Shown one piece after another: positions 7,933-61,933 of a stretch of DNA of 64,000 bases. The stretch is from positions 183,230-247,229 of the forward strand of contig JAZNOU010000012.1 in NCBI GenBank assembly GCA_045589295.1, in the 5' to 3' direction. Source of the stretch: Clostridia bacterium (GTDB lineage: Bacteria; Bacillota; Clostridia; RGIG6154). Positions within the stretch are counted from its first letter, which is position 1, and the number at the start of each line of letters is the position of its first letter. The position numbers were made by a program, and so were the translations under genes. Below the pieces are notes generated by a model. That model was not told where the DNA came from, searched no databases, and saw only the letters and a program-made list of their open reading frames with translations.

Positions 7933-7946
7933 ATTGTTGTAAAATT

Positions 7947-8549
7947 GGGTGGTGCAGTATTCTAGTCAGATTTTTTCATTCCCAGGACGGGCCTAAAAAT
8001 CCGTTGAAGGGCACATCGATGAAGTTTCTGGTGCGGGCTTTCGACGCCCAGTCGAGGGTTTGTGCTGGGAGTTAAGGATTAAGGGCGGTCGGCAATGGCA
8101 TGCAGAATTCGACCCTTCTTCCGTGGAGACCTATACTTGTGCCGTATTGGCCGACTAGTCTGTGAAGACTCGGCTGAAAAGGTACGACTTAGGATTAAAC
8201 CTGCGTTGCGGTCTTTTTTGGCTGTGCGCAGAGTAGCCTGCCTTGAGCGGTTGTGGTGGATTGCAAGATCAGGTTTTGTCTGGTTGGCCGACCGGACAAA
8301 ACTATTGCTTCATGAAACCACATTTGCAAAAGAGGCTAAGATTGATTAAATCTGTCGAGGAAATCTCCTAGACTGTTGGAAACAGATACGCAAAGGATTG
8401 AAGTGCGGACTAAGTGGCAATCGGGTACAAAGTTGAGCGATCGCTTTGGTCTTCTTTTAAAGGGAAACCGCTTACATCGGCGACGAGTGAGCAAGAAGGC
8501 GGGAAAGCCAACCCGACCTAAGCCGTAAATTTTACTTTGTGTATTACCC
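7947..8549 (+). ncRNA. ole: OLE RNA (ornate, large, extremophilic)
   Basis: ~600-nt GC-richer non-coding block; closing stem gggtggtgca (7947-7956) / tgtattaccc (8540-8549); OLE-like segments GUAUUCUAGUCAG, GGGCCUAAAAAUCCGU, GGGCACAUCGAUGAAG, GUAGCCUGCCUUGAG, GACUAAGUGG, GACCUAAGCCG; immediately followed by oapA-dxs-tlyA-nadK-argR-recN, the known OLE gene context. Confidence 0.93.
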
Positions 8550-8582
8550 CTTAAATTTACATTTATTTGGGAGAAATGATAA

Positions 8583-59165: not shown

Positions 59166-59630
59166 TTATGGACGGTCTTTTTTTCTCAAATTTTTAAAAA
59201 AATCATCTAATATATTTTTGCAATCAGTTTCCAAAATACCGCTTGTAATATCAAATGAGTGGTTTAGTATGTTTGATTTACTTAAATCGCAAAAACCACC
59301 GCAAGCACCGCTTTTGGTGTCGGGAGCGCCAAATACAACGCGAGGAATTCTTGCGTTTATAACAGCGCCTGTGCACATGGGGCATGGCTCTAAGGTAACA
59401 TAAAGTGTGCAGTCGGAAAGTCGCCAATTACCCAACTTTTTGCAAGCCTTTTCAATAGCAATCATTTCGGCATGAGCTGTTGCTATATTGCTTTTTTCAC
59501 GCTTATTATATCCCCTTGCTATAACTTTATCGTGCCTTACTATGACAGCACCGATTGGTATTTCGCCTATACTTTGCGCTTTTTTTGCCTCTTTTAAGGC
59601 TTTTCTCATAAATAAAATATCTTTTTCCAT
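59166..59630 (-). CDS. tadA: tRNA adenosine(34) deaminase
   Basis: GEIPIGAV, AHAE, WRL, TLEPCPMC, FFKNLR; start reassigned to MEKDILFM. Confidence 0.93.
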   Translation of the reverse strand: MEKDILFMRKALKEAKKAQSIGEIPIGAVIVRHDKVIARGYNKREKSNIATAHAEMIAIEKACKKLGNWRLSDCTLYVTLEPCPMCTGAVINARIPRVVFGAPDTKSGACGGFCDLSKSNILNHSFDITSGILETDCKNILDDFFKNLRKKDRP

Positions 59631-59636
59631 ACATAT

Positions 59637-59665
59637 ATTATAGGAAACAAACGGATTTTTGTCAA
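59637..59665 (-). promoter_or_regulatory. Consensus sigmaA promoter placing +1 at the tadA start codon
   Basis: TTGACA-17 nt-TATAAT-atatgt-ATG; no SD sequence. Confidence 0.75.
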
Positions 59666-59680
59666 TAAATCGGTGTTTAT

Positions 59681-59935
59681 TTAAGGATTGCACACTTTGC
59701 AGGGGGTTAGACCTAACTCTATTGCAGAAGGTTTGTCTATCGGAATTTTGCTGTAATTTAGATATTGGCAAGAACTTAAATGGTATTTTCGCCCTGTTTT
59801 GGTTTGATAAACAATTTCTTCAATAACGTTTTGTTGTTCTTGTTTGGTGGTATGTACAGCGATGTTTTGGTTAATGCAAGAAACGTTGGTTAAAACAACA
59901 ATTGTGAGCAAAAATGCAACTATGATTTTTTTCAT
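59681..59935 (-). CDS. Small exported/lipoprotein with an Ada-like zinc-binding C-terminal domain
   Basis: Signal peptide ending ...NVSC; VYQTKTGRKYHLSSCQYL...GLTPCKVC. Confidence 0.75.
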   Translation of the reverse strand: MKKIIVAFLLTIVVLTNVSCINQNIAVHTTKQEQQNVIEEIVYQTKTGRKYHLSSCQYLNYSKIPIDKPSAIELGLTPCKVCNP

Positions 59936-59952
59936 AAAACCACCTCAAAATT

Positions 59953-60130
59953 AAAAAATGCGCAACTCCGAAAACAGAGTTACGCACAAAAAACGTATCA
60001 ACTCAAGTTTCGAAGTCGCAACAACTCTCCAAAATGGTTTCAGCCAAAGTGGTATGAAAACAAGAGTGTACGCTTTTTACAATAGCGTACCCACTTTGTG
60101 CTGAAATATTTAATTGAAGAATTGTTGCAC
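59953..60130 (-). ncRNA. Putative ~180-nt 6S-like rod-shaped ncRNA
   Basis: Own promoter (TTGTAT-17 nt-TATACT with TGn extension, 60163-60135) and terminator (59953-59986); long closing stem, internal bubble, second stem and apical hairpin; G-U wobbles form only on the minus strand. Confidence 0.7.
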
Positions 60131-60164
60131 TTGTAGTATATCACAACTTTCAAAAAAATACAAC

Positions 60165-60195
60165 AAAAAAAGGCTGAAATATTTTCAGCCTTTTT
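60165..60195 (-). terminator. rny terminator
   Basis: aaaaaggctgaaa/tttcagccttttt. Confidence 0.85.
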
Positions 60196-60200
60196 GCAAT

Positions 60201-61742
60201 TTATTTAGCGTAATCAATTGCGCGTGTTTCACGAATAACGTTAACTTTAATCTGTCCCGGATATTCAAGTTCGCTTTCAATACGTTTAACAATATCGTGA
60301 GCGATAATTGTAACATCATCATCTGAAATCTTTTCAGGTTTAACCAAAATTCTGATTTCACGGCCTGCCTGAATAGCAAATGAATGGTCTACACCGTCAA
60401 AGTCATTTGCAATCTCTTCAAGCTTTTCAAGACGTTTGATATATGTTTCAACATTTTCACGTCTTGCACCCGGTCGTGCAGCAGAAATGGAATCTGCAGC
60501 CTGAATAATAAACGCAAGCGGAGTTTCGGCAACAACATCACCGTGGTGTGCGTGCACCGCGTGGATAATTTCTGCACTCTCTTTATGTTTGCGCAATATG
60601 TCAACACCGATTTCAATGTGTGAACCTTCGATTTCGTGGTCGACAGCTTTGCCGATATCGTGAAGCAAGCCTGCACGTTTAGCAGTTGTAACGTCAACAC
60701 CAAGTTCGCTTGCTAATATTCCTGAAAGCTGAGCAACTTCGATTGAATGCTTTAATACATTCTGACCGTAACTTGTTCTGAATTTGAGTTTACCCAATAA
60801 TTTGATAATATCAGGGTGAACACCATGAACACCTGTTTCAAATGTGGCACGTTCGCCCTCTTCTTTAATCGTATTATCAACTTCTTTTTTAGCTCTTTCA
60901 ACAGTTTCTTCAATTCTTGCAGGATGAATTCTTCCGTCACCAATGAGCTTTTCAAGTGAAACTCTTGCTACTTCACGTCTGATTGGGTCAAAACCTGAAA
61001 TAACGACTGCTTCAGGTGTGTCGTCGATAATCAAATCAACACCTGTAAGGGTTTCAAGTGTTCTGATATTTCTTCCTTCACGGCCGATAATTCTACCTTT
61101 CATATCGTCGCTTGGGAGAGAAACAACAGATACAGTGGTTTCTGCAACATGGTCTGCTGCACATTTCTGAATTGCTGCACTCAAAATATTTCTTGCACGC
61201 TTCTCAGATTCTTCTTTTACATTGTTTTCTACATCGCGAATTAAAATTGCAGCTTCGTGGCGAATTTCACTTTCCATATTTTTAAGCAAATATTCTTTCG
61301 CTTCTGCTGCGGACAATCCTGACAACTTTTCAAGTATAACAATTTCATCTTTCAGTGTTTGATTGATTTTTTCTTTCAGTTCTTCTGTTTCTTTGATTTT
61401 AATGTTGAGTAAGTCGTCTTTTTTGTCAAGAGCTTCAGTTTTCTTTTCAAGAGTTTCTTCCTTTTGCTGGATTCTTCTCTCCTGACGCTGAACTTCTGCT
61501 CTGCGTTCCTTTATTTCCTTATCAATTTCTGCTTTTAAATTTTGTGTTTCTTCTTTAGCTTCTAAAAGAAGTTCACGCTTTCTATTTTCTGCAGCTTTAA
61601 TTGCATCGTTTAATATATTCTTAGCCTGAGTTTCTGCACTTCCGATTTCGCTTTCTGCGATTTTTTTGCGATATGTCACGCCAAGGAAAAATGAGGCAAT
61701 TACAAAAACTATAGCTGCGGCTGAAATAATAATGTAAGGCAT
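60201..61742 (-). CDS. rny: Ribonuclease Y
   Basis: N-terminal TM segment, coiled coil, KH domain [15 protein letters not shown] domain [13 protein letters not shown]. Confidence 0.98.
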
Positions 61743-61933
61743 ATGTAGCACCTCCAATACTAAATATTTAGTTATAAAATTTATAAAAGAACTTTAAAAT
61801 TCACACAAAAAGATAATTATATTTTACATTGTTTTTATGAACTTGTCAAGAAAAATAATAAAAACTCTGTTCAAAACATTAAAATTATGATATACTGTTT
61901 CTACTGACGTTTATGAAAGGAGTGTTTGGGGAT

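Follow-up and report, generated by a model that had tools for sequence, protein, structure and literature searches.

A structured RNA downstream of rny in a Clostridia bacterium is probably the leader of a small lipoprotein gene and a member of a large family of transcription attenuators

What kind of RNA is encoded directly past the RNase Y gene (rny) of a Clostridia bacterium (GCA_045589295.1), where a strongly folding stretch is framed by a promoter and a terminator of its own? An earlier note, made from the sequence, had taken it for an unannotated rod-shaped RNA whose structure is under selection, and had suggested that it is a further RNA of the 6S type, though a non-canonical one, or else serves RNase Y or RNase III as a decoy. 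We analysed the surrounding 64,000 nt (contig JAZNOU010000012.1, positions 183,230-247,229; hereafter the window) together with related copies in other genomes. The element lies on the minus strand of the window. Its parts and its neighbours are the following, in window coordinates.

60204-61757, minus strand: rny (RNase Y) ORF, upstream of the element (TIGR03319, 753 bits)
60195-60167, minus strand: rny terminator (terminator scan), with the promoter of the element 5 nt past it
60135-60163, minus strand: sigma-A-type promoter, -35 box TTGTAT at 60163-60158, 17-nt spacer, TG at 60143-60142, -10 box TATACT at 60140-60135
60128-60114 with 60032-60018, minus strand: P1, closing stem of 15 bp with two G-U pairs (fold)
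60113-60107 opposite 60037-60033, minus strand: internal loop of 7 x 5 nt, the 5' bulge (60113-60107) A/U-rich (fold, segment map)
60106-60091 with 60052-60038, minus strand: P2 (fold, segment map)
60090-60068, minus strand: P3, conserved hairpin with a 7-bp stem (60090-60084 with 60074-60068) and a loop (60083-60075) that ends in a run of A
60067-60053, minus strand: J, 15-nt single strand between P3 and the 3' strand of P2, unpaired in the fold
60078-60056, minus strand: X, which begins in the run of A of the P3 loop, takes in the P3 3' arm and extends into the first part of J; complementary to X'
60017-59988, minus strand: tail of 30 nt between the P1 3' strand and the terminator
60011-59988, minus strand: X', switching strand of 24 nt within the tail, complementary to X and to T5 and ending in U6
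59987-59953, minus strand: intrinsic terminator, T5 at 59987-59975, loop at 59974-59971, T3 at 59970-59959, U6 at 59958-59953 (13 pairs in the scan)
59946-59940, minus strand: Shine-Dalgarno sequence (SD) 5' of the ATG at 59935
59935-59681, minus strand: ORF of 84 codons, its product small and lipoprotein-like with a Cys/His motif at the C-terminus, its SD-led ATG 17 nt past the U-tract
59665-59637, minus strand: tadA promoter, TTGACA-17-TATAAT, inside the end of the 84-codon ORF
59169-59639, minus strand: tadA, tRNA adenosine(34) deaminase (169.5 bits)

The promoter, the closing stem with its two G-U pairs, the 7 x 5 nt bubble and the terminator named in the earlier note are thus all found on the minus strand. 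Its description of the rod holds for the hairpin but not for the "apical" place given to it, as the single strand J, which had been left out, lies between P3 and the descending stem. What had been called a short tail is indeed there and contains the key part of the element, the switching strand X'. Past the terminator, which was read correctly, the SD-led 84-codon ORF had been missed.

The minus strand folds with -70.6 kcal/mol, as compared to a mean of -38.0 for shuffled sequences (z -8.08; none of 200 shuffles was as good). The plus strand folds more weakly (-54.8 kcal/mol, z -6.48), and both P1 G-U pairs turn into A-C when read from the opposite strand. The better fold of the minus strand fits an RNA that is read from it. 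The predicted transcript would start at about 60130, which would give a terminated product of about 178 nt. Beyond the nested fold, the 5' part of J pairs long-range with the first half of X' (60001-60011), as judged by duplex energies and column counts. By eye, only 4-6 A/U pairs are possible between the bulge (60113-60107) and the P3 loop. In contigs of public gut metagenomes, two strain variants occur at window positions 60011-60012, in the linker just before X'; a variant at 60101, seen in a single contig with a depth of 2.9, would break one G-C pair of P2.

Relatives of the element were searched for at increasing taxonomic distance. A blastn query of 216 nt found matches in 12 of 41 related genomes, often several in one genome and including a second place in the own genome; such paralogues are 69-75% identical, and this only where they can be aligned. 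A covariance model, whose E-values are rough, was then built from 17 aligned copies. P1, P3 and the terminator alone were given to it as structure, the pairing of X with X' (X:X') and the antiterminator being left out. It matches all 18 genomes of the order, which consists of one family, with 1-13 matches per genome. Three copies are present in the own genome, scoring 155.6, 155.5 and 96.9 bits. In an even sample of the class Clostridia, 37 of 151 genomes had matches, which cover 26 of 108 genera; at the level of the phylum, 2 of 151 sampled genomes matched, both within the class, and none of the 147 sampled genomes of other classes did. An exact-pattern scan of 185,579 species genomes returned 111 stretches. 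Among the 80 of these 111 that were listed, all titles denote metagenome-assembled genomes (MAGs), many naming animal gut or faecal samples, and the taxa are "Clostridia bacterium", Oscillospiraceae, Eubacteriales, Ruminococcus, Candidatus Ornithomonoglobus, Congzhengia, Ructibacterium, Candidatus Aphodoplasma and one Lachnospiraceae.

The RNA is unannotated, as had been claimed: a covariance search with Rfam 15 matches no family at the site. Neither RF00013, the 6S RNA, nor any other Rfam 15 family gave a relevant match on 59850-60260 (411 nt) at E <= 10, and at 20 further loci no family covers the element at gathering score. Over the whole window the gathering score was reached by the OLE (ornate large extremophilic) RNA and two tRNAs only. 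This OLE RNA is of full length (7933-8566, plus strand; 513 bits, model positions 1-616 of 616). The search for a canonical 6S RNA elsewhere in the genome, which the earlier note had recommended, was successful (RF00013 on a different contig, G000:C21:41005-41199; 89.9 bits with a cut-off of 46.4).

For the conserved anatomy, 40 further places were picked by score, lower-scoring matches staying outside the set, and 85 loci were searched again to yield 96 aligned copies. A -10 box is present in 81 of them, carries the TG extension in 69 of these 81 and in 71 is separated from the first P1 pair by exactly 6 nt, a fixed spacing which implies that the 5' end of the RNA lies flush in P1. In 93 of the 96 copies the minimum free energy fold retains the rod, its 5' and 3' strands being joined by 15 pairs or more (median 32), with sequence and length (49-166 nt) varying. 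Taken together, P1, P3 and the terminator are paired in 96.5% of cells, with double changes in 22 of 24 pairs, counts that lean toward these helices because the alignment was fitted to them. The same applies to the single helices: 97.9% of cells and both-side changes in five of six pairs for the six outermost pairs of P1, 95.1% and seven of seven for P3, 96.5% and ten of eleven for the terminator. A loose form of the A/U-rich 5' bulge motif is found in 66 of the 96 copies; the 3' side of the bubble is not conserved in sequence. These data bear out the earlier proposal of selection on RNA structure, and the sequence evidence as a whole supports an RNA, read from the minus strand, whose structure is selected for and which has a predicted promoter and terminator of its own.

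In long-form copies (e.g. L025, L026) the 3' strand of the internal loop has a conserved word, U-A-U-G-A/G, which faces a 5' strand containing G-A. By bending the RNA in the manner of a kink-turn it could bring the tail to J; the short form of the window lacks it. Two coding candidates within the element were rejected. A leader peptide might begin at the AUG that long-form copies have in their 3' internal loop, but the frames opened there differ in length and phase; the window copy has no such AUG. Of an antisense ORF (59958-60104), no more than about 25 codons are conserved among four orthologues.

The gene that follows the element is of particular interest. In 58 of the 96 copies the U-tract is followed after 14-39 nt by the start of a co-oriented, SD-led ORF (45 aa or longer), a gap that leaves no room for a separate promoter; in 11 more copies the distance is 41-100 nt. 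Of the 90 copies with any candidate ORF, 18 are without a convincing SD-led one, and six copies have no candidate at all; several of the copies without a close ORF are followed by another copy of the element. Complete promoter-leader-terminator units are even found in tandem arrays, three of them in L048 (1264-1923; G009:C61) and four in L080 (301-1185; G117:C2:61475-62359). The units are about 50 nt apart with no ORF between them, and the last one precedes a small ORF.

Among 70 distinct downstream proteins the Pfam matches are SLH (9), BspA-type LRR (4), YpsA (4), Cu_amine_oxidN1 (3), Trypsin-like (2) and Ada_Zn_binding (2), the remainder having single matches or none. By a crude test, 31 of 71 downstream proteins begin with a signal- or TM-like N-terminus. 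The 84-aa protein of the window matches neither Pfam nor NCBIfam. It belongs with the proteins behind L031, L033, L045, L027 and L047 to a lipoprotein-like family of 80-95 aa with a C-terminal Tyr-His...Cys...Cys-x2-Cys motif; the family recurs behind the leader in several genera, and some members match the Ada zinc-binding domain (e.g. E 7.6e-8). As to the other copies of the own genome, G000:C12:113116-113296 (minus strand) precedes a 95-aa lipoprotein-like ORF in which the Cys/His motif looks degenerate, and G000:C2:8205-8394 (plus strand) lies ahead of the gene for a protein that has a condensation domain and is more than 480 aa long. In the window, tadA follows next. Its promoter agrees with the consensus at 12 of 12 positions, and tadA is probably transcribed independently of the leader; having this perfect promoter of its own, it should leave the 84-aa gene as the only one that the leader governs.

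Of the three helices X:X', X':T5 and T5:T3, each excludes the next by sharing a strand with it. In the window, where the antiterminator is weak, the duplex energies are -17.4 kcal/mol for X:X', -8.0 for X' with T5 (X':T5, the antiterminator) and -19.5 for T5:T3 (the terminator). Over 88 distinct copies, X:X' has -19.8 kcal/mol with the native partner, -14.0 with that of another copy and -7.5 with a shuffled one; the corresponding values are -17.5, -11.8 and -6.2 for the terminator and -11.2, -9.25 and -6.4 for the antiterminator. In an alignment of J and X' that comes from the sequence-only part of the covariance model and may be off in distant copies, the X:X' columns are paired in 86.0% of 1236 cells, compared to 28-61% when slid against each other, and 12 of 16 pairs are compensatory. 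For X':T5 the figures are 82.8% of 896 cells, 23-65% when slid, and seven of eleven pairs. Doubly changed cells number 66 for X:X' against 30.3 in shuffles, and 42 for X':T5 against 27.3, values that none of 500 shuffles reached in either case; the copies being related to each other, these controls overstate the support. The number of X':T5 pairs with double changes is no better than in shuffles (230 of 500 reach it). Of the two, the antiterminator is the less secure helix. X keeps covarying with the X' of its own copy, with several variants side by side in one genome, a pattern that indicates pairing in cis.

Folded up to T5, the window transcript adopts the rod plus the antiterminator hairpin. 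The X:X' helix cannot nest with an intact rod; it could form only if the rod opened or if the RNA bent sharply into a pseudoknot. When the 5' strand was kept from pairing, the fold with X:X' reached -43.3 kcal/mol, versus -70.1 for the rod state.

A terminator between the promoter and a co-oriented ORF (U-tract ending at 59953, ATG at 59935), a conserved alternative helix on T5 and a further helix that competes with the latter are what an attenuator consists of. We therefore think it probable that the element forms the 5' leader of the gene for the small lipoprotein (59935-59681) and belongs to a large family of transcription attenuators that act in cis. The following mechanism is proposed. 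The first bases of the RNA (from about 60130) would pair into a rod of about 30 bp (P1/P2) that carries P3 and J at its tip. Five strands, namely the P3 5' arm, X, X', T5 and T3, would form a relay in which four helices compete in a chain: P3, X:X', the antiterminator X':T5 and the terminator T5:T3. As long as P3 and J are held, X' would pair with T5, no terminator would form and RNA polymerase would read into the gene. If instead X' captures J and invades the P3 stem, T5 would be freed, the terminator would form and transcription would stop. X:X', being a stem followed by U6, may itself act as a first terminator. Termination is presumably the default state, because J is a ready single-stranded toehold that is transcribed before T5 exists, and a factor bound at the junction of P2, P3 and J would then bring about read-through. 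The terminated product of about 178 nt is expected to be stable, both of its ends being base-paired.

Some of these properties would equally suit a trans-acting sRNA. The element could be a free-standing sRNA gene of a paralogous family with its neighbouring ORF incidental, or the stable terminated leader could act in trans as well. The element has an extended -10 promoter and a strong terminator of its own; paired ends on both sides predict a stable product; the tandem arrays are complete units without genes; and in the rod-plus-terminator state the 24 nt of X' are left single-stranded and could pair with other RNAs. What makes this unlikely, though a real share of probability stays with it, is the close SD-led ORF behind 58 of the 96 copies, where a promoter would not fit, the conserved and covarying pairing of X' with T5, which has no use in a plain sRNA, and the copy-by-copy covariation of X with X' among variants that share a genome, which speaks for pairing in cis.

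A second alternative places the function in the DNA. Upstream of cwpV in Clostridioides difficile, inverted repeats are recombined by an invertase to form an invertible switch. The long inverted repeats of the element, its multiple copies and its frequent position ahead of genes for surface proteins (the SLH, BspA-type LRR and Cu_amine_oxidN1 matches above) recall such a switch or a miniature transposable repeat. We consider this highly improbable, as the core has the same orientation relative to the terminator in 96 of 96 copies, the G-U pairs are strand-specific with the minus strand folding better, compensatory changes run along the whole rod of paralogues that are only 69-75% identical where alignable, and blastn finds no match among phage and plasmid records. 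Contigs from four DNA runs, in which rare variants are dropped, show one orientation and no strand-switch joint inside 59953-60163.

Least of all do we expect a second 6S-type RNA, binding RNA polymerase holoenzyme as an open-promoter mimic, or an RNase Y/RNase III decoy: the element resembles 6S RNA in its size of about 180 nt, its own promoter and its paired 5' and 3' parts that form a rod with an internal loop, and it adjoins rny, but it fails the 6S model, lies in a genome with a canonical 6S RNA, is unlike a housekeeping gene of one or two copies with a large central bubble mimicking an open promoter (the definition used here) in having a bubble of 7 x 5 nt with an unconserved 3' side and three copies in the own genome and up to 13 in relatives, ahead of unrelated genes, carries a conserved switch region and terminator directly upstream of ORFs, and is next to rny at merely two of 85 loci, the window and its closest relative.

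If the element is an attenuator leader, the question arises what it senses. The rod-hairpin-junction domain may be the aptamer of a new orphan riboswitch class that responds to a small molecule or ion as a global signal and controls a regulon of surface and small proteins through an unusual double-terminator relay. The architecture is compatible with such a reading, which we advance tentatively and put well below even chances. Several candidate signals and factors were compared among the 37 carriers and 114 non-carriers of the class sample. Cyclic di-GMP was rejected as the signal: GGDEF domains are absent from seven carriers (G006, G066, G099, G112, G117, G128 and G162, 94-100% complete), and the c-di-GMP-I riboswitch coexists with the element in 21 of 37 carriers, compared to 48 of 114 non-carriers, so that there is no exclusion. 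The own genome has three GGDEF matches and neither a c-di-GMP-I nor a c-di-GMP-II riboswitch. As a trans factor, a NusG paralogue of the LoaP type was discarded, two or more NusG-domain matches being present in only 3 of 37 carriers. The YpsA-like SLOG protein is strongly associated with the element (30 of 37 carriers versus 21 of 114 others), an association that is confounded because YpsA-like genes sit behind the element; it is not universal, however, as an obligatory factor would have to be, being absent from G117 and G140, each with eight element copies.

The DAC domain of c-di-AMP synthases occurs in 36 of 37 carriers, the exception (G084) being 62% complete; this is a weak test, 143 of 150 genomes having the domain. 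The ydaO riboswitch (RF00379), whose regulon comprises genes for osmolytes, potassium and the cell wall, was found in none of the 37 carriers, compared to 41 of 114 non-carriers. At the family level, 19 of 62 sampled families have ydaO and 15 have the element, with zero overlap, an exclusion that may be purely phylogenetic. A functional replacement of ydaO by the element was rejected: the 20 ydaO copies sampled are followed by genes (GNAT 7, lysine aminomutase 4, DapB 3, NlpC/P60 2) that have no Pfam family in common with the 70 proteins downstream of the element. Of the candidates tested c-di-AMP is the only one to survive, and weakly so; that it is the very signal sensed has a slim chance at best.

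Attenuation leaders of Firmicutes that depend on a protein or the ribosome and comprise several hairpins are well known, among them the trp leader with TRAP and the pyr leaders with PyrR. The element shares with them a chain of overlapping helices (anti-antiterminator, antiterminator and terminator) in a 5' leader that decides between termination and read-through, as well as the use of one sensor by several leaders of a genome. It differs from them in that it has no leader peptide and no GAG/UAG repeats, its sensor is a rod of 120-170 nt with a hairpin-plus-single-strand junction, its anti-antiterminator ends in a U-tract of its own, and its genes encode unrelated surface and small proteins instead of one pathway. 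With the second-messenger riboswitches c-di-GMP-I (RF01051), c-di-GMP-II (RF01786) and c-di-AMP/ydaO (RF00379) it has in common a conserved domain, variable covarying stems, a terminator/antiterminator platform and many copies per genome ahead of envelope-related genes, yet it matches none of their covariance models. T-box leaders (RF00230) are likewise long, present in many copies per Firmicute genome and based on a terminator/antiterminator decision, whereas the element has no match to their model and shows no conserved T-box sequence and no specifier architecture, and its downstream genes are not related to aminoacyl-tRNA.

We take the element for a new family of RNA whose regulatory type, the terminator-switch leader, is known. 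No description of it was found in the literature or in passages of PMC8040213; the supplementary tables of that paper, with 3161 candidate RNAs, lay outside the search and may contain the family. A regulatory RNA that has no Rfam model occurs up to 13 times per genome and in about a quarter of the sampled genomes of the class (37 of 151), its carriers being mostly MAGs of uncultured bacteria from the animal gut. A curated model would prevent its copies from being annotated as sRNA or 6S-like genes and would put an orphan class with many members before those who look for new riboswitches. The relay of five strands, with an anti-antiterminator that is a stem plus U-tract in its own right, is a design that lends itself to direct testing in vitro. 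Finally, the genes marked by the family form a coordinated set, their products being surface proteins (with SLH, BspA-type LRR and Cu-amine-oxidase-N domains), lipoproteins of small size, SLOG proteins of the YpsA-like type and many tiny proteins, which points to a signal that governs the cell surface of the carriers.
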